64,000 nt of DNA, from sequence record NZ_CP128206.1. The stretch is one strand, 5' to 3'. Source of the DNA: a plasmid. This document shows, piece after piece, positions 32,677 to 54,588 of this stretch. Both the position numbers and the translations under genes were made by a program. The notes under the pieces were generated by a model that was given only the letters and a program-made list of their open reading frames with translations, was not told the DNA's origin and made no database searches. Every line of letters begins with the position of its first letter. The stretch's first letter is position 1.

Positions 32677-33134
32677 TATTTGGCTGTGATCATTGACCTT
32701 TACTCACGACAAGTAATAGGCTGGTCGATGGATACGAGGATGACGGCAACACTGGTCTGCGATGCATTATCAATGGCTCGTTCCGTCGAGGCTTCCCAGA
32801 GGAAGTTATTGTTCATAGTGATCGGGGTAGCCAGTATTGCTCAAAAGATTATCGAGACCTCATAACTGCTTATAATCTAAAACAAAGTATGAGTAGGAAA
32901 GGAAACTGCTGGGACAATGCTTGTGTTGAGAGCTTCTTTCATTCGATGAAAGTAGAAGCGATTCAATACGAACCGATAATGACGAGAGATGAGATGCGCC
33001 AAACGGTCTTCGAGTACATAGAGGTTGATTATAATCGGACGAGAAGGCACAGTGCTCTTGGATATCTAAGCCCAGTTAACTTTGAACAGCAAAATGTCGC
33101 TTAATGAAGTGTCCAGTCTGGCTGGAGCAGATCA
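32677..33134 (+). mobile_element. IS3-family element, right part (3' part of orfB and IRR)
   Basis: Begins with the TATTT duplication. OrfB resumes as [16 protein letters not shown]... (ORFs 32680-32865 and 32889-33104). IRR ends ...GGAGCAGATCA at 33134. Confidence 0.8.
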
Positions 33135-39537: not shown

Positions 39538-39772
39538 TGATCTGCTCCAGCCAGACTGGACACTTCATTAAGCGACATTTTGCTGTTCAAAGTTAACTGG
39601 GCTTAGATACCCAAGAGCACTGTGCCTTCTCGTCCGATTATAATCAACCTCTATGTACTCGAAGACCGTTTGGCGCATCTCATCTCTCGTCATTATCGGT
39701 TCGTATTGAATCGCTTCTACTTTCATCGAATGAAAGAAGCTCTCAACACAAGCATTGTCCCAGCAGTTTCCT
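39538..39772 (-). mobile_element. Partial second copy of the IS3-family element (last about 235 bp with IRR), inverted relative to copy 1
   Basis: 39538-39772 is the reverse complement of about 32900-33134. ORF 39568-39840 is a fusion of the orfB C-terminus with unrelated upstream codons. Confidence 0.7.
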
Positions 39773-39912
39773 TTTCCCCGCTCCGGCATAAGCGAATCCC
39801 TTAACATTATCACCCGCCTGAACCGCATCAATGATGTCATTCATTTCCGGCGTAAGGTTGTGTTCTCCAATTGTTCGTTCTGAACTTTTTATTTCCATAT
39901 ATCACCTGCCTT

Positions 39913-40473
39913 TTAACTTAGTTTTTCTTTATAGCCTTTTATCGATGCGGTTATTGGTATTACCCTCTCTTTGATTGGAATCGATTTTAATGGCTCATGA
40001 GAATGTTTTGAAGCAGCAAGCAGATGAAAGTGTGATTTCATCAAATTCTTAACCACGCTTCGATGAGAATAAAGAACATCTTCCATCTCTTCTATCATCT
40101 CCAATTCCCATTCACGAGCATGTTTGAACTGTGCGCGTTTGTATTTACCCTCCCTCGGTGTTGCAATGGCTTTGACTACGCGAATTGTTTTACTCCCACG
40201 CTTAACAAATTGAACCCTAATCCATCGGCATGTGAATGCAATGCCAGTAAATTCCAAACGAAACTCGTAATTCGTTGATTCAGTCCGTCTGCTGGCATCA
40301 CCTCGACGGCTAAGCTCTCGCTCCGCCACCTTGCGCATCCAGATTGAATGCACAATCTTAGCTCCCTCGTATTCTCTGTCTATCTGTGCGTATATTGCCG
40401 CTTGTATTGCTGCAAATGACATCTTTAAACGATCTCCATTATGCTTAAAGTTGTTTTCAACAAATTTTACCAT
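39913..40473 (-). CDS. Hypothetical basic protein, 186 aa. Possibly a replication or partition-related DNA-binding protein.
   Basis: ORF with good coding appearance. No motif recognised with certainty. Confidence 0.35.
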   Translation of the reverse strand: MVKFVENNFKHNGDRLKMSFAAIQAAIYAQIDREYEGAKIVHSIWMRKVAERELSRRGDASRRTESTNYEFRLEFTGIAFTCRWIRVQFVKRGSKTIRVVKAIATPREGKYKRAQFKHAREWELEMIEEMEDVLYSHRSVVKNLMKSHFHLLAASKHSHEPLKSIPIKERVIPITASIKGYKEKLS

Positions 40474-40924
40474 AACAAATGTAGTAACAAAATGTAGTTA
40501 CATTTTGTACTAACAAGTTAAGGACAAAATAGCATGATTTTTTGTACTATAAGTCATAGGCGACCTTCGACTCGCTTGGTCGGATCGCCAGATGGGATGA
40601 AATGATCGCCAAATCTGGCTTGGTGCTGGTAGTGATAGCTGTCCAAGATGAGGCGTTTTTCTGGTTGGCTACAGAGGTGATGTGTACTGGCAATTTAACA
40701 TAATTACTTATATCTTTGCGATTTTGGAATTATTTTTGATGTGGTAGGATTAATTTAATTCTAATTTATTAATGGATGGATATGTTTATGGAAGGTATAG
40801 TTGTGTTGGTTATTATGTATTTTTGGATGCGATTTGTTTTTAAACTTATCATTCCTCGCTGTAATTCTTTTAGGAAGTTTATTTGGTATTGTATGCTAGG
40901 GATTTTTTAAAATTGAGGTGGAAC

Positions 40925-41173
40925 ATGAGTAAAATAATTCATATTTTTATTTGTATTTTTGCAGTGGTTGTGAATTTTACAACGGCTTTTGCAAGCACAA
41001 ATCTTTTGAGTGATGATGGTGATAAGTTGTTGGTCGAATCAATTGTGTCATCAACTTTTGGTAACTCGGATAACCTATCATCTATCAGTGACTACAATAT
41101 TCATAACGCAAAAATAAAAGCGGCAGAATTTACAGGTGAAGTGAATATGTCGACTCCCGCACTAAGGTTGTGA
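40925..41173 (+). CDS. Small secreted protein, 82 aa. Possibly frameshifted, since a downstream frame continues to 41333.
   Basis: GAGGTGG SD precedes ATG 40925. Signal peptide MSKIIHIFICIFAVVVNFTTAFA. A second frame 41160-41333 encodes a plausible continuation. Confidence 0.35.
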   Translation: MSKIIHIFICIFAVVVNFTTAFASTNLLSDDGDKLLVESIVSSTFGNSDNLSSISDYNIHNAKIKAAEFTGEVNMSTPALRL

Positions 41174-41496
41174 ACGGACGTATTTCTAAGCAACAGGTTA
41201 GAGTCATTTCTTCCAGTTATGTGCGACTCGTCTCATTGGATGAACGCAAAGCGGTAGATGATTTGGGTAATTTTACTCTGACCTCAATTGCTACGTTTGA
41301 GTTAAGAAAATCTGATGTCATGAATCATGATTAAAAGACTTAAAAATGAGGAAGATTTACTTGATAGAATTCAAAGTTTACAATCAAAAAATGATGAACT
41401 TATGTTGATTATTGAACGTCTATCGTCTGGTGTTAATTTTGCTTTTCTAGCACTACCGGTTCGTACACTGCTTCTTCTACCGCTTGGTTTTCTGTT

Positions 41497-42615
41497 TCAC
41501 CAAGCTTGGTTTTCTGTTTCACCAAGATCGAAGCTGAAATCGTCATCGCTGAACGCGAAGTCTGATTCTGGCTCTTCACTGGTTTCAATCGCCGTCTGTT
41601 CAGCCGAGAGAACCGCATCACTGGTCACAGTGGTTTGGTCATCAATGGTTGAATCCCCAAGATCGAAGCTGAAATCATCATCGTTGAACGCGAAGTCTGA
41701 TTCTGGCTCTTTCATTGGTTCCAACGGTCCCGCATTCTGAGGTTCGGATTGAACGCTCGCCATTGCAGGTTGATTGGTTGATGCTTCTTGCAGACTCTTC
41801 ATGAGAGTGAGCAATTTTTCCTTATTTGCCATACGAAACAGTAATCCAGACAGGATGTTGGTTTCGTCAGTGGACAGCTTACCCGCAATCGGCATTTGCT
41901 CTTCGACCTTTTTGATTTCCTGAACAAGTCGAGAAAATCGGCCATTGAGAAACGCTAACCCTTCCACCTTTTCTCGCAATCCGACTAGGCCGTTTACGTT
42001 GGTGCGGTTGGGTGCAATCGCGTCTGTTAAGCTGGATAAAAGCTTATTCGCAGTTTTCAAAATGTCGTCATCAAGAGAATTGCTTAAACCATCGATCTCT
42101 TTGCCCATGCTGATGTCCACAGACTGAACCGCAGCTTGAGCCGATTGCACTTTGAACATTGAGTAGCTTGCTGAGATTTTGCTTTTGACTTCTTGTGCCG
42201 GTGTTAATGCGGCGCGAAGTTTTTGCTCATACTCAGGATACTTTTTAACCCATTCATCTTGGATTAAATCGTGTCGAGAACAATACGCGTCAGCTTCTTT
42301 TTCGTAGTCATGAACAATTTTGCTCAATCCTAACGCCAAAGCATCGGCCTTGGAGGACGGTATCGCATAGCCACCCATAAATCGGATGCCTACACTCAGA
42401 CACAAACGCTCCGCTTGACGTTTCAGGGTATTAAATACCTTGAGGTCTTTGGGGTCAGTTGTGTATTTCGAACCTAAAGAGATGATCTCTTTCGGCGGGG
42501 TTTCCCCACGAAGAGATAAGTCGCTTTCTGCCAACTTTTTCCGACCTGTCCAGGTTGAAAAACGTAAGTGAACGGCGACGACATCGTTTAGAACGTTGAT
42601 GTTTGAATTGCTCAT
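41497..42615 (-). CDS. DUF3150-like protein with a duplicated acidic C-terminal motif EPESDFAF(N/S)DDDFSFDLG
   Basis: 372 aa. Family assignment is from memory of proteins that accompany CobS-like ATPases in SXT/IncC backbones. 60-bp direct repeat in the DNA at 41527-41590 and 41644-41707. Confidence 0.5.
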   Translation of the reverse strand: MSNSNINVLNDVVAVHLRFSTWTGRKKLAESDLSLRGETPPKEIISLGSKYTTDPKDLKVFNTLKRQAERLCLSVGIRFMGGYAIPSSKADALALGLSKIVHDYEKEADAYCSRHDLIQDEWVKKYPEYEQKLRAALTPAQEVKSKISASYSMFKVQSAQAAVQSVDISMGKEIDGLSNSLDDDILKTANKLLSSLTDAIAPNRTNVNGLVGLREKVEGLAFLNGRFSRLVQEIKKVEEQMPIAGKLSTDETNILSGLLFRMANKEKLLTLMKSLQEASTNQPAMASVQSEPQNAGPLEPMKEPESDFAFNDDDFSFDLGDSTIDDQTTVTSDAVLSAEQTAIETSEEPESDFAFSDDDFSFDLGETENQAW

Positions 42616-42886
42616 AATGGTATCTCCAATTTTTGATATAAAAAAAAGGACATACCATTACCCGCTAGGGCAAATGATATGCCCTATGGCGGTGTAGAAA
42701 TGTAGATAAGTCGCGCTAAACGCTAGGACTTATCTTTCTTTTTCAGTGCTTTTTTGCGAGTTGTCTGTCGCACCAAGCGTTGATTTGAGGGGAATAAAGA
42801 GCCACTAAACTGACTATTAATCCACCAGCGATAATCACAAATAAACCATTCATGATGATCTCCTTGTTTATGTTCTATGCCAAATA

Positions 42887-43132
42887 TTACTCTTGTTTTA
42901 ACTTTTTCGCAAAAACAGTGAATACAATACCTGACACGATTAGAGCGGCCATCTTCACATCGATACCCGTTTGGATCGCATAGACGTAGGAGCCAGTGTA
43001 ACCAGCTATGCCTAAATTCCCCACATGAGTACCAATTTCCTTCCGATGGCAAATTATCCAACCTGAACATTTCTTGATTTGTGCAACAAACCAAAGATAG
43101 GCAATCACATAATCGAACATGTATAACTCCAT
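42887..43132 (-). CDS. Small membrane protein, 81 aa, two TM helices
   Basis: ORF between the AAA ATPase and DUF3150 genes on the same strand. Confidence 0.4.
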   Translation of the reverse strand: MELYMFDYVIAYLWFVAQIKKCSGWIICHRKEIGTHVGNLGIAGYTGSYVYAIQTGIDVKMAALIVSGIVFTVFAKKLKQE

Positions 43133-43190
43133 AAATTATTATGGAGTACCTACCCACACGGGATAGATACCCCGCGTGGGTTAAAGCTGC

Positions 43191-44144
43191 TTAGTTGTTG
43201 TTAAAATCAGCACCAAACAACGCTACAGCTAATGTTTGAATAGTTTCACGTTCTTCTTCTTCCGAGCAGCGGTTTAACAATGCACGATCAAGCGCGTAGC
43301 TTAATGCATTGTTTGCTCCTTGGAATCGTTGAGTGAGTATCGCCCAACGAATTAACGTGCGAGTTGAAAAGGTGATCGATAATTCTGAGTCACCTTGCTC
43401 CCCTTTGAAGATAGCGCGAACCTTATTAGCCAGCTCAATCATCTTCTTACGCAGCACTTTAGGAATGTTCGGTGCCAGTTTTTCCAGTACCGCCATTTCC
43501 GTATCTTCGCTGGCGTAATCTTCTTTGATCACCACAAAGCGGTCCATGAACGCCATGTTTAGGCGGTTCACTCCCATGTAGTTGCCGTCACCACCAGATC
43601 CGTTTGAGTTCGATGTTGCAATCAAACGAAATGCGGGGTGAGGTCGTACAATTTCGCCGTTAAGCTGAGTGATCACGAGTGGCGCACCTTCCAAAATGGC
43701 ATTCAGGTTTGCCAATTCCGCCGGATCAACCAAGTCGATCTCGTTCAGAATCAGTACATGCCCTCCGCGCATCGCAGTCGTCAGTACGCCATCCATCCAG
43801 ACAGTATTGCCGTTCACTAATGTGTATTGGCCCACTAAGTCCATGTACTCAGTCGAACCGCCACATGTATAGCTTTGGGCTGGATAATTTAATCTGGCTA
43901 GTACCTGCTCAACCGCTGACGTTTTACCGCAGCCGGTTGGACCGGTGATCATCAAGCCATCGCCAAATGAGCAATCCAAAAACGCCACGATGTCGCGTAA
44001 CGTTTCCCGACGAAAGATGTAGTCTTTCTTGGCCGGAATATTTGGATGTCCACTTGGTGCAAAACCTTCAACCGTAACGTTTGTGCCAGGAAAACCGAAC
44101 ACATCCATTGGGTAGCTTTGCGGAGTTAGAGTTAGAGTAGTCAT
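43191..44144 (-). CDS. AAA+ ATPase of the CobS/MoxR/CbbQ (AAA_5) type
   Basis: 317 aa. Walker A GPTGCGKTS, Walker B HVLILNEIDL, sensor motifs. Confidence 0.8.
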   Translation of the reverse strand: MTTLTLTPQSYPMDVFGFPGTNVTVEGFAPSGHPNIPAKKDYIFRRETLRDIVAFLDCSFGDGLMITGPTGCGKTSAVEQVLARLNYPAQSYTCGGSTEYMDLVGQYTLVNGNTVWMDGVLTTAMRGGHVLILNEIDLVDPAELANLNAILEGAPLVITQLNGEIVRPHPAFRLIATSNSNGSGGDGNYMGVNRLNMAFMDRFVVIKEDYASEDTEMAVLEKLAPNIPKVLRKKMIELANKVRAIFKGEQGDSELSITFSTRTLIRWAILTQRFQGANNALSYALDRALLNRCSEEEERETIQTLAVALFGADFNNN

Positions 44145-44294
44145 AATGTTGTCCTTAATTAATCAATAAAAAAGGCAACTTACGACTCCCCTAGTGGGCA
44201 AGGGCGGGATCGAACTTTAACCACTGAAAATAAAAGACTTTATTTTATTGGGAACTTTTCAAGGTAATCACGATCTGATCATGAAGTTAAAAAT

Positions 44295-45413
44295 ATGAGA
44301 AACTCGTGCATGATTATCATTGAGCAGCTAAAAAAAGTGAAAGATACCCGTTCGCATATCAACCAAGTGTATCCTGTTATGGAAGTGGCTTTCTTGGTCA
44401 TAACCGCCATGATTTGTGGTCAAAATAAGTGGACTGATATTAAGGATTTCGGCGAAGGAAATATCGAGTGGTTGCGTGAGTATCTCCCCTACGACAATGG
44501 TCTCCCCACTCGGCATAATATTGCCGCGATAATGAGAACTGTTGTACCAGAGACGCTCTTGGAAGCGATGGTAGGCTGGGTCAATTTGCACAGAGAAAAG
44601 CATGCTCAGCCCATAATCAGCGTTGATGGGAAGGTTCTAAAAGGAGCGAAAGCAAGCAAACAAGAACACCCTCTCTATATGGTTTCGGCATTTGACGTAG
44701 ATGAAGGTTTGACTCTCACACATCAACCTTGTGACGGTAAAGGTATGGAGCTAATAGCGATAAAAAACATGCTCGACGCTTTGGATGTCAGAGGGTGCTT
44801 ATTAACTGCTGATGCGCTTCATTGTCAGGTTGAAACACTGAATAAAGTGGTTGATAAAGGTGGTGATTTCTTAGTGCAAGTCAAACTGAATCAGCCAAGT
44901 TTGTTAGCAGAGATTGATGCGCAGTTCCAAGACTATTGGGCTTTGCCAGAAGAACAACAGGAATCGTATATCACTGAAGATAAAGGGCATGGAAGAGAAG
45001 AGATTCGTGAGGTTTACGTGCTTCCTGCCTCCTTCAGCGAAGAACTCAAAGATAAGTGGAGTGTTGTAAAAAGCATTGTTGCGGTGGTAAGAGATAGAAG
45101 CGTCAAAGGGAAAGGAAGCTATGAAACATCGTACTACATTTGCACAGACCATTTGTCTTTAGAGTTAGCCTCAAACGCAACAAGGAAACACTGGAACATC
45201 GAGAACCAGCAGCACTGGGCTTTGGACGTTATTTTCAAAGAAGACGAGCAGCGAATTTACGCTGGGGACTCAGCATTGAATATGGCTTGTTGTCACCGAT
45301 TTGTGCAGAACCTCTTCAGGAAGTCAGAAGGGAGCGTGTCTGTACCAAGGAAGATGAATAAGGCTACGTGGGACAAAGATTATAGAGCAAAAGTTCTCTT
45401 TACATCAGCTTAA
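44295..45413 (+). CDS. ISAs1-family transposase (H-repeat-associated type)
   Basis: 372 aa. Inserted in the intergenic region between the exonuclease and ATPase genes, on the opposite strand. Confidence 0.8.
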   Translation: MRNSCMIIIEQLKKVKDTRSHINQVYPVMEVAFLVITAMICGQNKWTDIKDFGEGNIEWLREYLPYDNGLPTRHNIAAIMRTVVPETLLEAMVGWVNLHREKHAQPIISVDGKVLKGAKASKQEHPLYMVSAFDVDEGLTLTHQPCDGKGMELIAIKNMLDALDVRGCLLTADALHCQVETLNKVVDKGGDFLVQVKLNQPSLLAEIDAQFQDYWALPEEQQESYITEDKGHGREEIREVYVLPASFSEELKDKWSVVKSIVAVVRDRSVKGKGSYETSYYICTDHLSLELASNATRKHWNIENQQHWALDVIFKEDEQRIYAGDSALNMACCHRFVQNLFRKSEGSVSVPRKMNKATWDKDYRAKVLFTSA

Positions 45414-45510
45414 CAAAGTACGTTCGCGCCCTTCCTAGTGGGCAGCTTTCAGTTGCCCGATAGGGTTGATATTCATTGAATTAGTCAATCGCTCGACTAA
45501 TTCCCTCTTC

Positions 45511-46743
45511 TTAAAAATGCATGTTTCGTACAGATTTTTCGAAGAAATTACTTGGTGACGTTGGGGTAGCGATCATTGGAATGACCTTGGCGGTTTCTGT
45601 CGGCTCAGGCTCAGTTTTCGGTTGAGTCTCTTCCGGCATTAACGCGCTTGGCGATTTCACCGTCATCACGTTTAACGATTCGGCTTGCACCGGTTCCGTT
45701 GAGTGTTCAGGTTGAACGTTCGCATTGTCGCTGGTTTGAACAGTCGGTGTGATGGTTTCTGGCTCATCAGTTACATTGACTAAGTAGTAAGACGACCCTT
45801 TCTTCGTGTGCTTAGCTAGTAACTCTGGTGGTATCGCCACATTGAGATCCTTCGCCAGCTCATTAAGAACCGCTTGGTAGTCCACACTGCCATTTCGTTC
45901 CACTCGCGTAGCCCGAATACCACCTTTATCGAATGTTTTGACATCACTAGGGATTTGCTCAGTGAAGTAACTTTCAAGCTGATTCACATCGGCCTTGACC
46001 GCATTCATTTTGCGTTCAATCTCACCTAGATACGCTTTTTTCTCTTTCAGTTGCTCCACTCGGCTTAGCCAGGTTGGATCAACTTGAGAAAGTGGCGTGT
46101 CGTACACAACGGTATCGCGGCCTTCCATCATTGGCGGTGGCGTCTTAGTTTGCACCAAGTTCCAGAACCACAATGCTTTTTGTTCCGCTTTTTGGATAAA
46201 CGCATCGTCACGTTTAATGTTTACCGCAATTGAACGTTTACCGCGCAAGTAAAAAAACAAACGACCTTGAGGGCTTCCGGCGCAGTTAAGTTGCCACTGC
46301 ACTTGGGCAGCGTACATCTTGAACGTTGGCGCTTTGGATTGAAGTTCAACAAGTTCGTTGTAGATCTTTTCACAAGGACATTTGATTTCGAGCACTTCCC
46401 GAATGCCTTTAGAGATGGCTTGTAGGCCATCCAAAGACGCTTTGAACAGTGGATTATGGTCTGCTTCTACGCACACTGGCATATACACAATGCCGTATTG
46501 ATCTTCCACGGCGCTTCGCGCTTCCGGCTCTTGCTCGACACCACGTTGAACGTGAAAGTTTTTAGACAGGTCATCTGGTTGTTTATAACCGACTAACTCT
46601 GCCCACAGTCCGTATGGGGTTTGATAAGGTGACAGGCCCATAATCACAGGGATCATGGAGGCTGTAATGCCCGTTTTCCGCCACGCAAACCATTTTTCAC
46701 TACGTTGTACTAAGTCAACAATAGGCATAAGTGCCTCCTTCAT
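45511..46743 (-). CDS. YqaJ-like (lambda-exonuclease-fold, PD-(D/E)XK) recombination exonuclease with a long C-terminal coiled-coil and Pro/Glu/Thr-rich extension
   Basis: 410 aa. N-terminal 200 aa has the YqaJ pattern (VQRSEKWFAWRKTGITASM..., EIKCP). Confidence 0.65.
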   Translation of the reverse strand: MKEALMPIVDLVQRSEKWFAWRKTGITASMIPVIMGLSPYQTPYGLWAELVGYKQPDDLSKNFHVQRGVEQEPEARSAVEDQYGIVYMPVCVEADHNPLFKASLDGLQAISKGIREVLEIKCPCEKIYNELVELQSKAPTFKMYAAQVQWQLNCAGSPQGRLFFYLRGKRSIAVNIKRDDAFIQKAEQKALWFWNLVQTKTPPPMMEGRDTVVYDTPLSQVDPTWLSRVEQLKEKKAYLGEIERKMNAVKADVNQLESYFTEQIPSDVKTFDKGGIRATRVERNGSVDYQAVLNELAKDLNVAIPPELLAKHTKKGSSYYLVNVTDEPETITPTVQTSDNANVQPEHSTEPVQAESLNVMTVKSPSALMPEETQPKTEPEPTETAKVIPMIATPTSPSNFFEKSVRNMHF

Positions 46744-46825
46744 ATTGTGTTCAATAAAAAGGGCGCACTATCCCCTACGGGCAGTGTCGCCCGTTAGGGT
46801 AGATGGATAATTAGGGTACTTTCCT

Positions 46826-47176
46826 TTATAGAGAAACGGTCACGCAGTATTCACGCGAGCCATTGTGGTTCTGGTAATCCGAGCTCACCGTTTTTAATTG
46901 CGCCACTGTGTGCTGACTGCTCAACGTCACCTGTTCGGTGAGAACATCTTGGGTTTGGGCTTGGCCCTTGCCTTCGGTTGTGATGCTTTTCAGTTCCGTT
47001 CTGGCATTCACGGTGGCCCCAAGCTCATGAGAGAGTTGCCCCTTTGCCAATGCCTTTGCGGTGATTTCATCAACCACCGGATTGCCAGTGTCCGGCACAC
47101 AGGCTGAGCCGGTGATCGTCTTTGAGGCCGCGAACTCACTCACCACCAGTAAGCTGACCAACAACAGATATTTATT
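46826..47176 (-). CDS. Small secreted protein, about 117 aa, SPI-type signal peptide
   Basis: Start MNKYLLLVSLLVVSEFAAS overlaps the stop of the upstream gene (ATGA). Confidence 0.55.
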   Translation of the reverse strand, partial: NKYLLLVSLLVVSEFAASKTITGSACVPDTGNPVVDEITAKALAKGQLSHELGATVNARTELKSITTEGKGQAQTQDVLTEQVTLSSQHTVAQLKTVSSDYQNHNGSREYCVTVSL

Positions 47177-48371
47177 CATATTTCCACTCGCTCGATTCTT
47201 TTTCCGGCACCACCACCACACGCGCATCCAGTGAACTGATGCCCTGCAGTTCCGCTTGAGTCACGTTCTTGATGATGACCGGATTGCGATAACGGGAACG
47301 ATGGTCAGCATCTAACATGCGGTTATCTTTGGAGTCATTGGAGAATTGAAGCGCGAAGTTGCTCCCTGCGAAGAAATCGCTTCGGCCACTGATTGGCAAA
47401 TACCCCACTTTGTTCGCCGCTTTAATCTCAATAGCGACTGTATGACCGGACAGGTAATCCAGCAATTCGCCGCTGTAGGGCTTTAATTGTTTATTGCCAC
47501 GGTTATTGTACGAAGGGAACTCAATGGTGTAGGGCGGTGCATGTCGGTCTTTCTCTTTCAGTACCAGATAATTCGACATGACGCTGCGCACCGGTTTCAT
47601 CGGGACATTCCAACGCACCGGAACGTGAATGTTGTACGTTCCGTCAGTGTTCTTTTTGAACTCTGGATTGCCAAGCGAAATCTTTGTTTGGGTTTTTAAG
47701 TAGCCAAATACATCTCGGTTCACGGCCTCTTTCGCCAGGTCGTAGTCTTGTCCATCCAGCATCGCCAGTTGGAAAAGAGTACCCTGCTCGAACACTTTCT
47801 TTGTGGCCGCACGATTGCTATCGAGCTTTGCCAACACCGCGTCACGCTCAGCCAGCAAATCCGTTCGTGCGCCCTCGTTAATCTTGCGGGTTAACTCAAG
47901 CACTTCGCCGCGCAGACGTTGATTGTCTTTCTCAAGTGCGTCCATCTTGGCCTTGCGTTCTGGATCGCTTTTCAGCTTTGCCAACCCATCACGAATGGAC
48001 GCTTTGGACAGCTTTATTTTGGCGTAGGTATCGAGCACGAGACTGCCATTGGCTCCTACTGAACGCTTATCTTCACGGCTTAACACCTCAAGAAACCCTG
48101 CCGTTAACACGCGCACTTGTTGTTTGGTGATGGTTTGGTTTGACACCTGCAGCACCGATTCAATGTAGGTTCCGGCGTAGTCGGAAGCCGATTTCTTGGC
48201 TTGCTCTAGCGTGATTTCTCTGGCACTGGTTAATGTGTCGTTATCACCAAGCACATAACGTTCCGTCACGTTCAGCGTGATGTGGTCCTGATTCTCGGAA
48301 TCCAGCGATACGGCGGCATGAGTAGAGAAAGACAGCCCAACCAGTAGGGCCAGTAATGTTCGATTCATCAT
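47172..48371 (-). CDS. Secreted protein, 399 aa, with a central coiled-coil segment
   Basis: Signal peptide MMNRTLLALLVGLSFSTHAAV. Heptad-rich region KLKSDPERKAKMDALEKDNQRLRGEVLELTRKINEG. Confidence 0.6.
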   Translation of the reverse strand: MMNRTLLALLVGLSFSTHAAVSLDSENQDHITLNVTERYVLGDNDTLTSAREITLEQAKKSASDYAGTYIESVLQVSNQTITKQQVRVLTAGFLEVLSREDKRSVGANGSLVLDTYAKIKLSKASIRDGLAKLKSDPERKAKMDALEKDNQRLRGEVLELTRKINEGARTDLLAERDAVLAKLDSNRAATKKVFEQGTLFQLAMLDGQDYDLAKEAVNRDVFGYLKTQTKISLGNPEFKKNTDGTYNIHVPVRWNVPMKPVRSVMSNYLVLKEKDRHAPPYTIEFPSYNNRGNKQLKPYSGELLDYLSGHTVAIEIKAANKVGYLPISGRSDFFAGSNFALQFSNDSKDNRMLDADHRSRYRNPVIIKNVTQAELQGISSLDARVVVVPEKESSEWKYE

Positions 48372-48382
48372 TTCGTCCTTTG

Positions 48383-48766
48383 TTAGTCAACCCGAAACCA
48401 GTGAGAATCCAACCCCATGCTGGCGCACGCGGTACAAATCAACTCGTTCCCGTTGTTCGTGATGATTATCTCCAAATCTGGCCTGACAACGCCGACGACA
48501 TCTCGGTTATGCATCGTGACCACGATTTTGTTTCCCCTGACCAGAAACGGCTTATCCATGCTGCCAAATTTGCTTGAGAGTGTTGCGGTATCGTGAGTGA
48601 ATTGAAGCGTAGCGTTTTGTTTCGACTCAGAGTATTTGCCCTTGATAAACGCTTTATTGAAGATGTCTGACACATCAGCAGGAGGATAATGAGCGGTATC
48701 AGAATCACACCCTGATACCGCCAATGCGCTCACCAAACACCATTTACTCAGGCTTGATGAACTCAT
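48383..48766 (-). CDS. Lipoprotein, 127 aa
   Basis: Lipobox LAVSGC. 12 bp upstream of the next gene. Confidence 0.55.
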   Translation of the reverse strand: MSSSSLSKWCLVSALAVSGCDSDTAHYPPADVSDIFNKAFIKGKYSESKQNATLQFTHDTATLSSKFGSMDKPFLVRGNKIVVTMHNRDVVGVVRPDLEIIITNNGNELICTACASMGLDSHWFRVD

Positions 48767-49634
48767 ATTTTTTGCCTTGCGTGTAAATGGCGGGTAGCAC
48801 TAAAGCGTAATCTGTGTATGTAGTACCCCCGAATTTAGCTTTTGGTAATGACGGAAGATACAAATAGAAACCTTCCGGTAGGTAGCTAGTCAAACTTTTA
48901 TAGTATTCGCGGAGATCGATATCTCTTTTCATTTCCACACTATACATGAGTGGTGTAGTTGTTTTTGCGAGCATGTTTTTAAGATAATAGTCATTCTGGC
49001 TTACTCCATATGTGTAATACTGACCTTCTCTTTGTTGATCAATAGATCCATTACGTAGCGTCAATAAACCTGACTTTGGTTTATCAAGGTGGAAACCTCC
49101 CATATTGTATTCTTCACCATTGGTATTAACGAAGTAAACTGAGTAACCATCCCTCACATTTTTTTTCTTAGTTTCACCATACTGGCTAAGGGCTTTCTTG
49201 CTGGCGAAATCAATGCGTTCTAGGATATATGATTGTGCTTCAAGTTCATTTGCGAACAAAGAAGAATCAACTTCAATTATCCAATGCGCAGACCCTGCCG
49301 CATGATCTGTATCAGCAAGGTTTGACACGGCTCCACCAGCAACATCAATCAAACCAGTAAGGTCTAATGTGAGCAATTTCAAGCCGCCAAACAGTAGCGA
49401 GGTATCGCCACCATTTCGACTTCGACCAATTGCGTATTTAATTTCGCTTTCTTCCTCTTTTGAGAAATCTCGTAGAGGGCTCTTGTCTCTGGTAAGAATT
49501 GTTTGATTAGCAATGTTCAGTGCATAACTGTTTTTATCTGAGAACGGGACTGGATTTACCGGCTCAGGCTTCGCAACACACCCACTGAGAGCAGTCATCA
49601 TTCCAATCATTGCCGAAATTGTTTTCATGTTCAT
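48744..49634 (-). CDS. Lipoprotein, 296 aa
   Basis: Lipobox MTALSGC. Overlaps the start of the following gene. Confidence 0.6.
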   Translation of the reverse strand: MNMKTISAMIGMMTALSGCVAKPEPVNPVPFSDKNSYALNIANQTILTRDKSPLRDFSKEEESEIKYAIGRSRNGGDTSLLFGGLKLLTLDLTGLIDVAGGAVSNLADTDHAAGSAHWIIEVDSSLFANELEAQSYILERIDFASKKALSQYGETKKKNVRDGYSVYFVNTNGEEYNMGGFHLDKPKSGLLTLRNGSIDQQREGQYYTYGVSQNDYYLKNMLAKTTTPLMYSVEMKRDIDLREYYKSLTSYLPEGFYLYLPSLPKAKFGGTTYTDYALVLPAIYTQGKKYEFIKPE

Positions 49635-49703
49635 AGCTTCTAAATTCCATGTTTTTTAACTAATACTCGAATGTTATCAGTCGTTATTTTTTTCCAAAAT
49701 GCA

Positions 49704-52700
49704 TTATTGGCTGCGACTCCACGCATCCTCATACGCATCGCGGCGAACTTCGTCAGCATCGATATTTTCCATACGCTCTCGATTGGCCTCTAGGACATTA
49801 TTTCTGTCTGTTCCGCCTTGCTGAGTGTTCAAATTGGACCCTTTGCCCGTGAGGGAATCAATATTCACATTCACCATGTCGGTGTAATTCCCCGTACTGA
49901 TGAGTATGCCAATCCATTCATCCAGATTCACTTTATCCCAATCGACTTTATCCAAATCTTGAATGCCGACACCTGTGCAGTTCGGTTTTTTCGCGGTTCC
50001 CCAATTTAAATTCATCTGTGACTGAGCATAAATTTGCTCCATCATGATACGAGATAATGGAGAATCAAATACGCAGTAAGACTGGCGTTTTTCAATACAG
50101 GCACCAAGCACCTCTGTCTTACAATAGGAGCCAATTTTATGCGTTGATAACAGCTCTCGTTTCATCGCTAAATCCAGCTCTTCCTCTTCGCATTCGTAGA
50201 TAACATTGACCAGCAAATTAAACACGACATACGCCAGATATGCGTAATACACATACATCAGGGCTTGTCCGGCTGCGGCCATTTCTGCAGAAGCAGCGAG
50301 CGCAGTTCCTCCACTTTCAATAGCAACTTCTTGGAAAAACATCTGTGCCACCTCTGGACCAAAGGTGTCTATCAAAAACTGGTTGGTGTATTGCATCATT
50401 TGTTGTGCCACTGCGCTCATGAGGCCGTCTTTAGCACCGTTTTTCCCCATTTGCGCCACAATATCCGCCGGTGATATAAATTCACCTTGTACCGCCGACC
50501 AAGCAGATTGAGCCGTGGCACTTCCCCACGTTGATGCGGTTTCCCACACACCAGGATAGTTTTCCAACCCCATGACCTGCCCCGTTAGCGCATCCATCTG
50601 AATCATTTTGGTCGTGAGCGAAATGTAATCAGCAAGCGTGACCGCTACAGGGGATTTACAGCAATTCTGCATCCCCCCCACCGCAATTTTGCATTCGGAC
50701 GCAGTACCTTTGAAGAGTTCGCACGTAACGTTGGTATCTCCCCCGCTACTGGTTGTGACCGACGAGGTGGACATGGTACTCATTGACATCGGCTGAGCAG
50801 TAGAACTTGCTGACGCAAGGCCCATGAGCTGCTGTCTGCCCACTGTCGTCAACGCAATGTTCTTCTGTTGTTCTTCAGCCATAGAAAGGAATTGCTCGGC
50901 TACGTACTGTTGCATCGTTTCTTGCGTCAGTTTGGCTTCCTCTGACCCCTGCAACTCGCTGCTTGCGTTCGCTTTGGGAATTAACGTATCCAGCATGTGC
51001 TCGAACGGCGAAAGAGCCATTGCGACGATTTGTTGGGTTTGAGTCTGAGTCAATTCTACTTCGACACTGTTCAACTCGAACTGTGCGCGAGCATCGGCCA
51101 GCGGCGATGGACCTTTTGACGTACAACGGCCTTCGGCTTCGTTCCAGATAGGATATTGGCTAGGGCATCCGATTTGTGCCGGTTCTTCTCTGCGACATGA
51201 ATCTGTTTTCGGGTCATAAAATGTCCCTTCTGCAGAACATGTCCAGACAGGTGCAGATGACGAGGAACTGACGCATTTATTATTAGCTTTGTCTAAAGTG
51301 TATCCAGCTCCGCAAGATGCTTGTTGGTTGACGCTTATATTTGTACATATCTCATAACTGTATAGAGGTGACTCATGATCTTGAAAACAATAACCATTAA
51401 CTTTTTTACCACTATTTTCAAATCTAGGAGTCGCACCAGTATTGATATATTCATTACTGGCAGAATAATAAGAAACGTTGGTTGTACCACCGCAGTTATT
51501 ACCGTTATATCTAGCTAAATACCACTTGGCTCTGAGTTTTCCTCTCCAGTAATTTCCTTTTAAATGTCGAGCATCAGTTTTCTCGTAGCAAACGTTAAGA
51601 ATGGTATCATACAAACAGAGTCCATTATGATCCCAACTTTCACCACCCAGAAAATTCGATGTATTGTGATATGCAGACGAGTCATTATCCCAAAAACAAC
51701 CAGCTTGCTGCCCTTGACACATGCCATTGATCGGTTGAATGCCATTTGGACACGAGGGAACATTAAATACAATTGCCTCACACATACCAGTGTTCGAATT
51801 GTATGTTTCATTACTACCATTACATTCCGGCGTAGCAGGTACTTCTAACAAGCAGACATCATCATCCACACTCCACGGATCGTTGCCTTCTACCAAGGGA
51901 ACACCATCAGGACACGTTGGTGTCGGCGGTATTTCACAATACCCCGTCTTGGGATTGAGCGTGTGATCAGGACTTGGGCAACCACTCGGTATGACTGGTG
52001 ATTCTGCATTGGTACAGACCTCATAAAAGGTATCAGTCGCCAGTTTTTTCTTTGCCTCACCACATGTATAAGTCACCCCATTTTTCTTCACGGGTATGCA
52101 GGTAGGAACGCTGGCATCATCCACCACCACTTGATTTCCCACCAGCACTTGAATGCCATTGCGCGAGCTCGCGGCATAAAAATCGTTGTCAGAATAGGTA
52201 CAGCCTGTTGGTTTCAAACATTGGTTAGTTTGTTTGTTGTAAACGAACCCGTCAGCACAACTTGGAACGGGAATGTATTGGTCCGGCGGCGCATCTGCAT
52301 CGTATGGGGATTCGGGAATGCCTTGGCAGGTCATGTCAGCTTTTGCGTATTTCAGCATTTCCAGATAGGCATTCACTTTGCCAAAATCTTCATTCGCGCC
52401 ATCACGCGCAGGGCTGTAACAATTCTCGCCAACACACTGAAGTTTGCCGTCACAGCGCAATACCTGCTCTTCTTTCGGCTGTCCCGTTGAAGCCGTGAAG
52501 CCACAATCGTAGGTGTCCTCTTGGACATAACAGTGGCCGGAGCTGCCTTCGGCCCCTTCCACACACTCACTCTTGATATAAGAACACGTAGGGTTCTCTT
52601 CGTATTTTTTACACTGATTGCGATCTACTGTGTCATTATCAAAACAGCGCTCTACCCCATTGAGATCCTTTGAGCAAAATTGGCCTTCGTTAAACCCACA

Positions 52701-54104
52701 GTTGGAAGTCACTTCCACTTTTCGACAAAACGGACTGATGCCTAAACTAGCAAATGGGTTCGATTTGAAATTAGACTCACAGACTTTCACCCCGTTCATC
52801 ACCGTACAACCGGCTGCATCAAGGCTTGGCATGTCGGTACACTGAAACGAGCCGGTACAGTAACCGTCATCGATCTGTTTTTTTACTTGGAAAGCTTTGT
52901 CGATGTTTTCTTGCGTTGTCCAATTGTCACCGTACACGAGATCGTTCATGTTGTAGTACACCAACAAAGAGGAATAGCCTTCCCCTTCCCCCGCTACAGA
53001 GGTGCGAGTTTTAAACGTTATCTCACCATATTCAGGCACACTGGTGAATGAACTGGTGACGTTAATGTTAGGTCGGGTGTCCCAGGAAGTGCTTAACTCA
53101 CATTTCGTCCCGACTTCGGGCGGAAATTCACCGTTCGGGCCGTTGTAGATTTTCACCCCGTTCAAATACACTTGGTGATAATCATCGAACTTCGAGCGAT
53201 CCAGAACGGCATAAGTAATTTTATCCGGCTTCAACACTTCAACGGACATGCTCTCTTCATAAATCGTACACCAGCCTGGCCAGTAATTGTTGCCTACTGT
53301 GCCGATCCAAACCTGTGTGCAGCCATTTCCGCAAGAAACAAGGTTCACCGGACCGCTTTTATGTCTCAAAATGCCGACTTTGTATTCGTGGCTGATGGTA
53401 AATGTCTCTTCGACAACCGGTAGTTTTTCGCACGTTTCGTATTTCGGCACATGGTAATCCTTGCCTGACGAAATGAGCTCAGTCGTGAGTGTGCAGTTGG
53501 CAAAGTCTTTGGTAATGTCGGTGAGGTTGTCGAGTACCTGATCGGTGTTCTTCCACATCGGATCGTTGCTTAAATCCGGCTTTTGAGTAGCAAAAGACCT
53601 CTTCAGTAGATGATAAGCTCGTTCACCGCTTGAATCGGCGGTTTCGAGTGTCTTTTGTTCGTATTTATCTTTCGCTAACTGGCCTTGGATAAGGGTTTTG
53701 GAATCACTGCCATAGGTGTCGGTATCAGCGGGGATGTAATCATTGTCGCGCTGACCCGTGAGCTCCTGTTTCGTCATAATGGCTTTGCCATTGACCATCA
53801 GCGAACCATCTGACGAAAAGGTTGGATTAGAGTGTGCGTTTTTGACAGGTTGTTTAACCTGTGTTTTTTGCACGTTTGCATTGGGTTGTTTCGCCAAAAC
53901 CTTAAAGGTGAAGCGAATCAAGCAGAACGCAAGATAGGCAACCAACGAAACCGTTGCCAGTAGGATAAATGCTGCCACCATCCGAGCTGGATTCTCTGCT
54001 TGGTAAGCAACAAAGGCACCAATAAAACACAAAGCAAAAACCGTGAAGTTTTTGAATGATGTTTTTGGTAGAAGTGTTGATAGGGTTTGAGTTGAAGTGT
54101 TCAT
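49704..54104 (-). CDS. Giant cysteine-rich TraN-like surface protein (mating-pair-stabilisation family C-terminal domain) with an N-terminal two-helix membrane anchor
   Basis: 1466 aa with many Cys pairs. C-terminal block QNCCKSP...SYCKTEVLGACIEKRQSYCVFDSPLSRIMMEQIYAQSQMNLNWGTAKKPNCTGVG...IDWDKVNLDEWIG resembles the conserved TraN C-terminus. GGAGA SD precedes ATG 54104. Confidence 0.55.
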   Translation of the reverse strand: MNTSTQTLSTLLPKTSFKNFTVFALCFIGAFVAYQAENPARMVAAFILLATVSLVAYLAFCLIRFTFKVLAKQPNANVQKTQVKQPVKNAHSNPTFSSDGSLMVNGKAIMTKQELTGQRDNDYIPADTDTYGSDSKTLIQGQLAKDKYEQKTLETADSSGERAYHLLKRSFATQKPDLSNDPMWKNTDQVLDNLTDITKDFANCTLTTELISSGKDYHVPKYETCEKLPVVEETFTISHEYKVGILRHKSGPVNLVSCGNGCTQVWIGTVGNNYWPGWCTIYEESMSVEVLKPDKITYAVLDRSKFDDYHQVYLNGVKIYNGPNGEFPPEVGTKCELSTSWDTRPNINVTSSFTSVPEYGEITFKTRTSVAGEGEGYSSLLVYYNMNDLVYGDNWTTQENIDKAFQVKKQIDDGYCTGSFQCTDMPSLDAAGCTVMNGVKVCESNFKSNPFASLGISPFCRKVEVTSNCGFNEGQFCSKDLNGVERCFDNDTVDRNQCKKYEENPTCSYIKSECVEGAEGSSGHCYVQEDTYDCGFTASTGQPKEEQVLRCDGKLQCVGENCYSPARDGANEDFGKVNAYLEMLKYAKADMTCQGIPESPYDADAPPDQYIPVPSCADGFVYNKQTNQCLKPTGCTYSDNDFYAASSRNGIQVLVGNQVVVDDASVPTCIPVKKNGVTYTCGEAKKKLATDTFYEVCTNAESPVIPSGCPSPDHTLNPKTGYCEIPPTPTCPDGVPLVEGNDPWSVDDDVCLLEVPATPECNGSNETYNSNTGMCEAIVFNVPSCPNGIQPINGMCQGQQAGCFWDNDSSAYHNTSNFLGGESWDHNGLCLYDTILNVCYEKTDARHLKGNYWRGKLRAKWYLARYNGNNCGGTTNVSYYSASNEYINTGATPRFENSGKKVNGYCFQDHESPLYSYEICTNISVNQQASCGAGYTLDKANNKCVSSSSSAPVWTCSAEGTFYDPKTDSCRREEPAQIGCPSQYPIWNEAEGRCTSKGPSPLADARAQFELNSVEVELTQTQTQQIVAMALSPFEHMLDTLIPKANASSELQGSEEAKLTQETMQQYVAEQFLSMAEEQQKNIALTTVGRQQLMGLASASSTAQPMSMSTMSTSSVTTSSGGDTNVTCELFKGTASECKIAVGGMQNCCKSPVAVTLADYISLTTKMIQMDALTGQVMGLENYPGVWETASTWGSATAQSAWSAVQGEFISPADIVAQMGKNGAKDGLMSAVAQQMMQYTNQFLIDTFGPEVAQMFFQEVAIESGGTALAASAEMAAAGQALMYVYYAYLAYVVFNLLVNVIYECEEEELDLAMKRELLSTHKIGSYCKTEVLGACIEKRQSYCVFDSPLSRIMMEQIYAQSQMNLNWGTAKKPNCTGVGIQDLDKVDWDKVNLDEWIGILISTGNYTDMVNVNIDSLTGKGSNLNTQQGGTDRNNVLEANRERMENIDADEVRRDAYEDAWSRSQ

Positions 54105-54187
54105 AATGTGTCTCCATTAGACAAAAAAATGGGACACATTACCCCTACGGGCTTTGTGTCCCGTTTGGGGTTTGAATTAATATCGAC

Positions 54188-54303
54188 CTATTTATCTAGA
54201 TGATACTTTTTGCTGTAGTGCTTGACGACTTGCCATCCGACAATACCAAGTATTGTCACAAAGCCAATACACATACCAAGATAGATTAGTGCGCCAGTAG
54301 TCA
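54188..54303 (-). CDS. Small membrane peptide, 38 aa (MTTGALIYLGMCIGFVTILGIVGWQVVKHYSKKYHLDK)
   Basis: Strong AAGGAG SD 6 nt upstream. Immediately upstream of the TraN-like gene on the same strand. Confidence 0.4.
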
Positions 54304-54354
54304 TATGATTCTCCTTTTCGATAAGTATAACAAAGTGGCGTTTTTTAAACCAAA

Positions 54355-54588
54355 TTATTCCTCTCCATCGCTGTTTTGAACCATATCACCTATCACCAAG
54401 CCCACATCAATAATCACATAGGCGAGCATAAATGCTATACCGACTGCAATTGTGATGACGTTCATTGGGATATTGTCTGCTGTGCTAACTAAGTTGATTC
54501 CTCCTGTGACCATTATACCTGCGCCTATTGCTAGGAACACATTGGCAAACGCTCGAAGAAATGCTTTTTTTATAATATTCATACGCAT
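54355..54588 (-). CDS. Small membrane protein, 77 aa, two TM helices
   Basis: GAGGT SD upstream. First gene of the minus-strand block. Confidence 0.45.
   Translation of the reverse strand: MRMNIIKKAFLRAFANVFLAIGAGIMVTGGINLVSTADNIPMNVITIAVGIAFMLAYVIIDVGLVIGDMVQNSDGEE

Follow-up and report, generated by a model that had tools for sequence, protein, structure and literature searches.

A divergent Sfx-like lipoprotein gene in a probable mosaic remnant of an IncA/C-like conjugative backbone on a Vibrio plasmid

Introduction

When genes for envelope proteins and genes for DNA processing stand together on a plasmid, do they form a system in their own right, or are they what is left of a conjugation apparatus? 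The question is raised by a 64,000-nucleotide stretch of plasmid DNA (sequence record NZ_CP128206.1), called the window below. From position 54588 downward, its minus strand carries a run of genes encoding two small transmembrane (TM) peptides, a 1,466-amino-acid (aa) protein resembling the transfer protein TraN, four secreted proteins or lipoproteins (296, 127, 399, and 117 aa), an exonuclease, an ATPase, and a DUF3150 protein. An earlier note, made from the DNA letters without database searches, left two explanations standing, namely a stripped remnant of a conjugative backbone or an autonomous envelope-associated system that has not been characterized. The open reading frames (ORFs) of the run lie where that note had placed them (Table 1).

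Here we compare the block with related plasmids, with protein families, and with published exclusion systems. Our reading, to which we assign a probability of roughly 75%, treats the block as a mosaic left over from an IncA/C-like (ACL) conjugative backbone of the MOBH type with F-type mating-pair formation (MPF-F), carried on a non-conjugative, multidrug-resistant (MDR), Rep_3 plasmid of Vibrio furnissii. The gene in the block that is most likely to matter encodes the 296-aa lipoprotein, a remote homolog by sequence of the surface-exclusion protein Sfx.

Results

Origin of the gene block

The block is 99.7% identical to its counterpart in V. furnissii plasmid pVFBJ07-1 (71 kb), and the window shares its backbone with a 76-kb plasmid of V. 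furnissii FDAARGOS_777. Both plasmids are typed as non-mobilizable and carry a Rep_3 initiator, parAB, toxin-antitoxin genes, and metabolic genes. Apart from traN and mobI, no transfer genes were found in pVFBJ07-1, in the FDAARGOS_777 plasmid, or in the rest of the window, and the reported lack of ssb, bet, vWA, and other tra genes held for all 64 kb. A complete relative is V. fluvialis plasmid pIDH5335-2, a MOBH/MPF-F conjugative plasmid with a counterpart to every piece of the block at 85 to 100% identity. Its transfer genes include the mobH relaxase gene, traD, traL/E/K/B/V/A, traC, an S26 peptidase gene (trhF), traW/trbC, and traU, together with a lytic transglycosylase gene (SLT), traN, traF, traH, a giant traG, and mobI. 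Because every piece is matched in this plasmid, the pieces of the block belong to an ACL conjugative backbone. The proposal of a stripped conjugative remnant was therefore essentially right.

The pieces are arranged differently in the complete plasmid. Between 8 and 27 kb, pIDH5335-2 has the order traLEKBVA-traC-trhF-traW-traU-SLT-...-traN-296-127-399-117-209aa, where the numbers are the lengths of the encoded proteins and the 209-aa protein is a lipoprotein. Between 54 and 88 kb, it has 77aa-155aa-recT-exo-AAA-small-DUF3150 (81 to 88 kb) and, after many intervening genes, vWA and then traFHG-mobI. The traN locus and the exo locus are thus not neighbors but lie more than 20 kb apart. In IncC plasmids, the order is traN-sfx-acaB-...-AAA-hyp-ssb-bet-exo-DUF3150, so the resemblance to the IncC and SXT region that had been noted for the window is real as far as IncC gene order goes, although the adjacency seen in the window is secondary.

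Breakpoints obtained with blastn show how that adjacency came about. Colinearity of the window with the FDAARGOS_777 plasmid stops at 46814 and resumes at 53827, and the match to pIDH5335-2 spans positions 46828 to 53831. The limits of the donor-like and the backbone-like sequences therefore coincide, at 46.81 to 46.83 kb and at 53.827 to 53.831 kb. The segment between them (~7 kb, 46.8 to 53.8 kb) is 94 to 99% identical to pIDH5335-2 and contains traN minus its first ~56 codons, followed by the genes for the 296-, 127-, 399-, and 117-aa proteins. At the right junction, the donor-like and backbone-like sequences share 5 bp of microhomology (TTAGA). Furthermore, 1.36 kb present in the FDAARGOS_777 plasmid and pIDH5335-2 is absent from the window, corresponding to the 3' part of a gene for a 155-aa two-TM protein and to RecT. 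In both of those plasmids, a 355-aa RecT gene (Pfam RecT) lies directly upstream of exo, at the present site of the traN segment. Taken together, the coincident breakpoints, the junction microhomology, and the lost 1.36 kb indicate that the traN-to-117 segment replaced recT by illegitimate recombination. This replacement is why bet appears to be missing, and because the segment landed in the recT locus, the proximity of traN to exo is derived rather than ancestral. The genes for Exo, the AAA ATPase, DUF3150, and MobI form a separate backbone locus.

The chimeric TraN

The 1,466-aa protein had been described as having a TraN-like C terminus behind a two-helix membrane anchor. Profile searches bore out the first part, with matches to NCBIfam PRK14876 (726 bits; cut-off, 603) and Pfam PF06986 (117 bits; cut-off, 23) and with the conserved Cys-rich C-terminal TraN domain in place. 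The two-helix N terminus is also there in the sequence; it is the product of a gene fusion. The 155-aa gene that supplied it is intact in the FDAARGOS_777 plasmid and in pIDH5335-2, and the junction is in frame, with TraN resuming at about residue 57 of the pIDH5335-2 protein. Signal peptides begin the TraN proteins of pIDH5335-2, pVA249, a V. mediterranei contig, and loci L012 and L017, as well as those of IncC and pAQU1; in the intact relatives of the giant TraN they end in ...AYAQ. In comparison with these intact relatives, no native N-terminal Sec signal peptide was found in the window TraN. The "membrane anchor" is thus a fusion artefact that removed the signal peptide and not a new TraN design.

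Hydropathy of the new N terminus gives one strong and one weaker hydrophobic segment, and the net charge is +2 before the first helix, 0 between the helices, and +6 in the 30 residues past the second. Given these six positive charges, the positive-inside rule predicts that the body of TraN is cytoplasmic, a location in which it would have no role as an outer-membrane adhesin. The protein is ~39% identical to IncC TraN, over half its length. Its gene does not lie within an MPF-F transfer operon, while the traC-trhF-traW-traU-traN context is kept in pIDH5335-2, pVA249, and loci L011, L012, and L017. The same chimera occurs in pVFBJ07-1 and in one Logan assembly; since it is identical in both, the fusion arose once and has spread. 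From these sequence features, the window TraN is probably dead, a passenger on the plasmid.

The Sfx-like lipoprotein

Inspection of the sequences by eye agreed with the earlier assignment of signal peptides or lipoboxes to the four proteins encoded downstream of traN (Table 1). From traN to the 117-aa gene, successive genes are separated by 69 bp, overlap by 23 bp, are separated by 11 bp, and overlap by 8 bp, which includes the two overlapping pairs that had been noted. The four genes had also been described as inserted. They are not a single novelty, as the first belongs to the Sfx family and the last two to a separate mobile module. None of the four proteins matched a family in Pfam, NCBIfam, PADLOC, or PHROGs. 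A promoter and terminator scan of the block did no better than shuffled sequences, and an Rfam scan of the region returned nothing.

In IncC plasmids, a gene next to traN encodes Sfx (vcrx085), an outer-membrane lipoprotein of 286 aa (Rivard et al., PLoS Genet 2024, PMC11493245). Its presence in recipients is necessary and sufficient for surface exclusion, with the specificity set by the TraN of the donor, and orphan sfx genes shown to be functional occur on mobilizable islands that have mobI and oriT (origin of transfer) and lack traN (PMC11493245). The signal peptide of the 296-aa protein reads MNMKTISAMIGMMTALSGC, with the lipobox LSGC. Against the Sfx94 sequence (vcrx085), taken from a V. 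cholerae IncC plasmid, its direct BLASTP match was marginal (E = 0.008). The protein belongs to a family of 33 unnamed proteins, mostly from Vibrionaceae. A profile of 29 sequences (the window protein and 28 of the 33 family members) aligned to Sfx94 almost end to end with hhalign (probability, 97.2%; E = 3e-11; 260 columns). Searched against 1.84 billion representatives, the profile found 102 proteins, and the weaker matches among them are 38 to 47% identical to Sfx94 over their full length. In the other direction, Sfx94 matches core members of the family by BLASTP (e.g., E = 8e-12). All 20 of the 20 family-invariant residues are kept in the window protein. An Sfx-like gene stands directly after traN in six plasmid loci (the window, pIDH5335-2, pVA249, L011, L012, and L017). 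By profile comparison, then, the 296-aa lipoprotein is a remote, full-length homolog of Sfx from a divergent Vibrio branch. Its gene is probably a functional, fast-evolving exclusion gene of the Sfx family, with an exclusion activity predicted from homology.

Orphan Sfx-like genes also occur outside plasmids, in the V. navarrensis chromosome (locus L013, 9001 to 9978) and in Vibrio sp. S11_S32 (locus L015, 9001 to 9906). One of them lies beside the integrase gene of a prophage-like element with RecT, YqaJ, Dam, and UmuDC; another lies between an M23 peptidase gene and tyrA/aroF, with no mobile-element signature.

Co-variation of sfx and traN

The TraN proteins of IncC (931 aa) and pAQU1 (926 aa) lack an insertion of ~500 aa that is found in the clade of the window, where the intact giant TraN relatives are 1,372 to 1,625 aa long. 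We compared the proteins pairwise among three closely related plasmids, the window, pVFBJ07-1, and pIDH5335-2. The base of TraN is 98 to 100% identical among them and the C-terminal part 91 to 96%, and identity in the core of the insertion (aa ~733 to 1000) is 25 to 40%. The Sfx-like protein is comparably divergent, with the window protein 53% identical to that of pVFBJ07-1 and 41% identical to that of pIDH5335-2, between flanks that are 97 to 100% identical. When the window is compared with pIDH5335-2, DNA of 94% identity lies between the divergent patches of traN and sfx.

In these three plasmids, the Sfx-like gene and the TraN patch change together, a pattern that fits the one predicted for Sfx/TraN specificity pairs. 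Because the window and pVFBJ07-1 share the same traN fusion but differ in their sfx and tip alleles, the allele was exchanged after the fusion had formed. An exchange of both the sfx allele and the traN patch at that stage fits selection on exclusion specificity. A homolog search with aa 597 to 1100 of TraN (window positions 50805 to 52316) returned two proteins and missed both the window TraN and its known relatives, so it is uninformative about how widely the insertion is distributed. The poor result may reflect a limit of the candidate step for a Cys-rich, repetitive segment.

The 127-, 399-, and 117-aa proteins

The gene for the 127-aa lipoprotein is an accessory. The protein is 96% identical in pIDH5335-2 and 50% identical at the same position in the metagenomic locus L017; its gene is reduced to a 59-aa remnant in a V. 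aestuarianus element and is absent in V. mediterranei. The 399-aa protein has 45 database homologs, all unnamed. In an AlphaFold2 model (predicted local distance difference test score, 74), a long helical hairpin connects two domains of mixed alpha/beta structure. A fold search with this model gave no significant match, with a weak Foldseek resemblance to Tip-alpha of Helicobacter pylori (E = 0.06).

In six other loci, homologs of the 117-aa protein (27 to 54% identity) are always encoded directly after a homolog of the 399-aa protein. Outside the window, this pair is always followed in turn by a gene for a lipoprotein of ~200 aa, which carries the NCBI name LPP20 family and has weak Pfam LPP20 matches (E = 0.0006 to 0.04). 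The trio follows traN and an Sfx-like gene in pIDH5335-2, V. mediterranei, and L017, lies 6 kb from them in L012, and occurs without either in a pAQU-like V. harveyi plasmid and in a chromosomal island of V. hannami. The 399- and 117-aa genes are thus two thirds of a separate, mobile, three-gene envelope module. The imported segment does not reach beyond the stop codon of the 117-aa gene, which is why the window has no LPP20 gene. Our best guess, made with low confidence, is that mobile elements use the module, together with exclusion, as an accessory of the outer envelope.

Several ideas about these proteins were tried and dropped. That the 399-, 117-, and ~200-aa proteins all have LPP20-like domains was unsupported by hhalign, in which the 399 and 117 families aligned to the neighboring LPP20-like family with a probability below 7%, leaving the three module families unlinked. 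Profile searches of these three families against sequences in the PDB were empty. A role for the 296-, 127-, 399-, and 117-aa proteins as parts of the TraF, TraH, or TraG type was rejected, given their lack of Pfam and NCBIfam matches and the annotation of traF, traH, and traG elsewhere in pIDH5335-2. An SfxAQU1-like Sfx beside the 399 module in pAQU-type plasmids was also discarded; the 267-aa protein encoded beside the module is not an Sfx, and no Sfx-like gene was detected by tblastn in the pAQU-type stretches examined.

The V. aestuarianus element (locus L010, JAKNYR010000004, 2519 to 11530) encodes an integrase, AlpA, MobI, and a TraI_2-domain protein and has no traN. Its gene order, Sfx-like(296)-59-399-118-LPP20(203), makes it an island counterpart of the segment captured in the window.

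The backbone locus, mobI, and a candidate oriT

The exonuclease, ATPase, and DUF3150 proteins had been named correctly from the sequence, and profile matches now support each of them (Table 1). Exo is 99% identical to pIDH5335-2 Exo over 405 aa and 32% identical to IncC Exo over 324 aa, and its PHROG match is a RecE-like exonuclease. The C-terminal extension that had seemed unusual is native. For the AAA ATPase, CobS is the best named NCBIfam match, below its cut-off; the protein is 99.7% identical to that of pIDH5335-2 and 49% identical to the AAA ATPase of IncC. The DUF3150 protein is 100% identical to the pIDH5335-2 protein over 371 aa and 30% identical to that of IncC, and it contains the acidic motif EPESDFAF[NS]DDDFSFDLG twice, as had been reported. 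In pIDH5335-2, a 608-aa VWA protein is encoded between DUF3150 and traF; vWA and traFHG have been lost from the window.

The impression of a single, tightly spaced block applies to the stretch from traN to the 117-aa gene. Farther down, a 1.2-kb insertion sequence (IS) splits exo from the AAA gene, and 1 kb with remnants of plus-strand ORFs splits DUF3150 from mobI. The insertion is the ISAs1 element that had been recognized in the sequence. It lies in the intergenic space that separates the stop of exo from the start of AAA, is absent from that site in the FDAARGOS_777 plasmid and pIDH5335-2, and probably uncouples AAA and DUF3150 from upstream transcription. Truncation of exo by ISAs1 was considered and ruled out by a 164-bp blast match and by the identity of Exo to its pIDH5335-2 counterpart. 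The deletion next to mobI (4.6 kb) took an IS21 element and three small genes as well as part of a paralog of the 399-aa gene, which in FDAARGOS_777 is 25% identical to it.

Two small length differences were seen among the sister plasmids. Relative to window positions 45434 to 45646, and likewise to pIDH5335-2, the FDAARGOS_777 plasmid (20892 to 21055) has an indel of ~61 bp near the 3' end of exo that shortens Exo to 364 to 369 aa. The DUF3150 protein measures 372 aa here, 386 aa in pVFBJ07-1, and 396 aa in pIDH5335-2 and FDAARGOS_777, a variation (window positions 41497 to 41560) that stems from a small indel after the second acidic repeat.

The last gene of the run, which the earlier note had left unnamed, encodes MobI. 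It is annotated as mobI in pVFBJ07-1 and FDAARGOS_777, where the annotated start corresponds to 40422, and its region is 85% identical at the DNA level to the mobI region of pIDH5335-2. The window protein is intact and aligns end to end with MobI of pIDH5335-2. In SXT elements and IncC plasmids, oriT lies upstream of mobI. A non-coding stretch in this position in the window, with a perfect 10-bp inverted repeat (ACAAAATGTA/TACATTTTGT, 40487 to 40508), is conserved within the clade (pIDH5335-2, pVA249, and other Vibrio plasmids), and a 17-bp core (GTTACTACATTTGTTAT) likewise precedes mobI in the V. aestuarianus integrative element. Remarks on mobI and oriT in MGIVchHai6-like elements are consistent with such a location (PMC11493245). 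By analogy, the stretch is a plausible candidate for oriT.

Table 1. Positions of the features discussed, in the coordinates of the window
Feature	Positions	Strand	Basis or remark
77-aa two-TM peptide	54355-54588	-	backbone, WP_038152853; upstream of 155-aa gene in pIDH5335-2
38-aa single-TM peptide ORF	54188-54304	-	backbone; called as gene in a Logan assembly
Chimeric traN, 1466 aa	49704-54104	-	codons 1-~93 from backbone 155-aa two-TM gene, rest IncA/C-like giant TraN
Imported segment, traN (from ~codon 92 of fusion ORF) through stop of 117-aa gene	46815-53831	-	blastn breakpoints
Hypervariable core (aa ~733-1000) of ~500-aa TraN insertion (aa ~600-1100)	51105-51908	-	gap in alignment with IncC and pAQU1
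Predicted Sfx-family surface-exclusion lipoprotein, 296 aa, hypervariable allele	48744-49634	-	lipobox LSGC, profile homology to Sfx94
127-aa lipoprotein, accessory gene	48383-48766	-	lipobox VSGC; between sfx-like and 399-aa genes
399-aa secreted protein, central coiled coil, first gene of module	47172-48371	-	hydrophobic N terminus
117-aa secreted protein, second gene of 399-117-LPP20 module	46826-47179	-	hydrophobic N terminus
YqaJ/lambda-exonuclease-family Exo, 405/410 aa, ~240-aa C-terminal extension, intact	45511-46743	-	YqaJ 3.8e-23, TIGR03033 5e-54
ISAs1-family IS (transposase 44295-45413)	44193-45433	+	matches ISAs1 copies of other Vibrio plasmids at 99%
CobS/MoxR-like AAA+ ATPase, 317 aa	43191-44144	-	AAA_5 4.7e-25, CbbQ_C 1.5e-13
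Small conserved hypothetical gene	42887-43132	-	WP_038152852, annotated in all three relatives; no family match
DUF3150 protein, 372 aa	41497-42615	-	Pfam PF11348, 8e-61
Remnant of paralog of 399-aa gene	41170-41439	+	cut by 4.6-kb deletion relative to FDAARGOS_777 (blastn breakpoints)
Candidate oriT, non-coding, just upstream of mobI	40439-40553	.	conserved; inverted repeat and repeated TAGTACA motifs
mobI, 186-aa ORF, MobI(A/C)-type transfer accessory protein	39913-40473	-	Pfam PF19456, 4.6e-17

Plasmid context

Elsewhere in the window, positions 12096 to 33000 (~12 to 33 kb) form a resistance island, rich in guanine and cytosine (up to 64%), with sul2, aph(3'')-Ib, aph(6)-I, tet(A)/tetR, and floR. 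The island also holds two Tn3-family transposase genes (one truncated), ISCR2 (an ISCR clade Ia transposase), and a 294-aa fragment matching the C terminus of relaxase RlxS, and most of it has no counterpart in pVFBJ07-1. A 237-bp sequence occurs as two inverted copies (32898 to 33134 and 39538 to 39774) that flank a segment with DUF4277, EAL-domain, and chemotaxis-receptor genes ending just below mobI; the two copies are perhaps partial IS ends by which the segment was moved. IS5-family copies with 306-aa transposases lie at 4221 to 5141 and 54812 to 55732. One of them is directly upstream of the 77-aa gene, where an IS5 is annotated in pVFBJ07-1 as well.

Discussion

The reading of the block as a mosaic remnant builds on direct observations of homologies, mosaic structure, junctions, and an allele pattern. 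It implies a history in two loci. Locus A (77aa-38aa-155aa-recT-exo-AAA-small-DUF3150...mobI) would have been inherited from a pIDH5335-2-like ancestor and would then have lost vWA, traF/H/G, and everything else between DUF3150 and mobI, with ISAs1 entering later between exo and AAA. Locus B would be a 7-kb piece of a co-resident conjugative plasmid that entered locus A through illegitimate recombination. With its entry, recT was lost along with the 3' part of the 155-aa gene, and the two hydrophobic helices of the 155-aa protein became joined in frame to a TraN without its Sec signal peptide. By analogy with IncC Sfx, the 296-aa lipoprotein would sit in the outer membrane of the host and would block mating-pair stabilization by donors with a TraN of the corresponding specificity group. 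In this respect, the plasmid would resemble the mobilizable islands with an orphan sfx, perhaps mobilized in trans via mobI and the candidate oriT, yet excluding particular ACL plasmids.

A number of observations weigh against parts of this account. The chimeric ORF is still open over 1,466 codons in two plasmids and one further assembly, which could mean that TraN is in use, or merely that the event is recent. The topology of the window TraN is deduced solely from charge and hydropathy. The 296-aa protein is only ~21% identical to Sfx94, no solved structural relative of its fold was found, and its gene is co-oriented with traN, whereas the sfx of IncC is divergent and has its own promoter. 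The co-variation, seen in three plasmids, could reflect a recombination hot spot instead of functional coupling. Finally, the oriT is a candidate only.

Other readings of the block account for some of the same facts. If no imported gene, the sfx-like gene included, were expressed or selected, the block would be pure debris heading for loss. The IS insertions, the 4.6-kb deletion by mobI, and the loss of vWA, traFHG, and recT have that character, as do the module without its LPP20 gene and the variable C terminus of DUF3150, and the FDAARGOS_777 plasmid manages without the imported segment. Decay of this kind is hard to square with an Sfx-like protein that keeps its lipobox and all family-invariant residues, with replacement of the sfx allele after the fusion while the ORFs were left intact, and with orphan sfx genes on mobilizable elements that have been shown to be functional (PMC11493245); we consider it unlikely. 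A more active role would follow if the window TraN replaced that of an ACL helper plasmid, altering the recipient range or escaping surface exclusion. The precedent is SGI1, which is known to encode its own TraN, TraH, and TraG that reshape the IncC apparatus (PMC5389848), and the window does keep mobI, the conserved upstream repeat, and an intact traN ORF whose variable part was exchanged after the fusion. However, the native signal peptide is gone and the new N terminus predicts a cytoplasmic TraN body, the window has neither traG nor traH, and the sister plasmid FDAARGOS_777, with the same backbone, does without traN. Hijacking of a helper in this manner is very unlikely.

The least probable reading is the other alternative of the earlier note, an autonomous envelope-associated system in which an anchored TraN, the four secreted proteins, and Exo, AAA, and DUF3150 would act in adhesion or exclusion and in DNA-end processing. 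Co-oriented genes, tight spacing from traN to the 117-aa gene, and intact ORFs throughout are what such a system would look like, but synteny in related plasmids contradicts it. In pIDH5335-2, more than 20 kb lies between the two halves, and their union in the window came from an illegitimate recombination at the cost of recT. The source of the anchor is an unrelated gene, and an IS stands between exo and AAA. Moreover, the two sets of genes occur without each other: exo-AAA-DUF3150 is found in FDAARGOS_777, where traN and all four secreted genes are missing, and the secreted genes are found in the V. aestuarianus element, which lacks traN and exo. No PADLOC defense model matched. An autonomous system is, on this evidence, extremely improbable.

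A broader and doubtful extension of the mosaic reading is that surface exclusion in this clade has several parts. The hypervariable core of the giant TraN insertion would determine specificity and be read by the fast-evolving Sfx-like lipoprotein, which would recognize it directly or through a receptor, and the conserved string of genes downstream (127, 399, 117, and LPP20) would supply a new outer-envelope module acting together with Sfx. The plasmid of the window would then be a non-conjugative plasmid that captured the module and later changed its alleles, gaining control over the entry of conjugative plasmids.

Most of what the block contains is known biology, and the new points are modest rather than categorically new. 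They are the divergent Sfx branch, the giant TraN insertion that changes together with an Sfx-like gene, and the mobile 399-117-LPP20 module. The reach of the Sfx family is extended to a divergent Vibrio branch with ~100 cluster representatives, and the cases of orphan sfx on integrative islands are joined by one on a plasmid. The Sfx-like gene may help to determine which conjugative plasmids are able to enter V. furnissii, V. fluvialis, or V. cholerae strains with MDR plasmids of this kind, and the core of the TraN insertion is a candidate region for mapping exclusion or receptor specificity. In addition, the "membrane-anchored TraN" shows how a protein that looks exotic can originate from a fusion. 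Labeling it traN, as in pVFBJ07-1, leads pipelines to report a transfer gene on a plasmid that is unable to transfer itself.

Among known systems, SGI1 with its TraN_S, TraH_S, and TraG_S resembles the window in being a non-self-transmissible element with a traN homolog and mobilization determinants (PMC5389848). The window differs in having no traG or traH and a TraN without an export signal, and the resemblance is probably superficial. The traN-...-exo-DUF3150 region of IncC and the corresponding SXT/R391 region have homologous AAA, Exo, and DUF3150 proteins, and pIDH5335-2 holds these three together with recT, vWA, traFHG, and mobI. In the Vibrio clade, by contrast, the traN and recT-exo loci are not adjacent and ssb was not found; the window has lost recT and vWA besides. 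TraN proteins of IncA/C and IncH plasmids have been divided into the size classes TraNM (880 to 950 aa) and TraNL (1,050 to 1,070 aa) (He et al., J Bacteriol 2026, PMC13104618). The window TraN shares their base architecture, along with the conserved Cys-rich C-terminal domain, but the extra ~500 aa of its clade sit at ~600 to 1100 and not at the published tip (residues 205 to 354 of TraNM). That tip maps to a part that is 92 to 100% conserved among plasmids of the window clade, and the hypervariable patch lies inside the new insertion.

The closest comparison is with the Sfx/TraN pairs of IncC, IncA, and ACL plasmids (PMC11493245). In contrast to IncC, the sfx-like gene of the window is co-oriented with traN instead of divergent, there is no acaB before the next genes, and in the clade of the window three or four extra genes for secreted proteins or lipoproteins follow. 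The partner differs as well, since the TraN of this clade is ~500 aa longer than that of IncC and the window copy has no signal peptide. What the systems share is a lipoprotein of ~290 aa encoded adjoining traN and profile homology over its full length. In the three plasmids compared, the alleles also change together with the variable part of TraN, as would be expected if they were specificity pairs. With mobI, an oriT-like region, and no working transfer apparatus, the window also resembles the islands of the MGIVchHai6 type that carry an orphan sfx.

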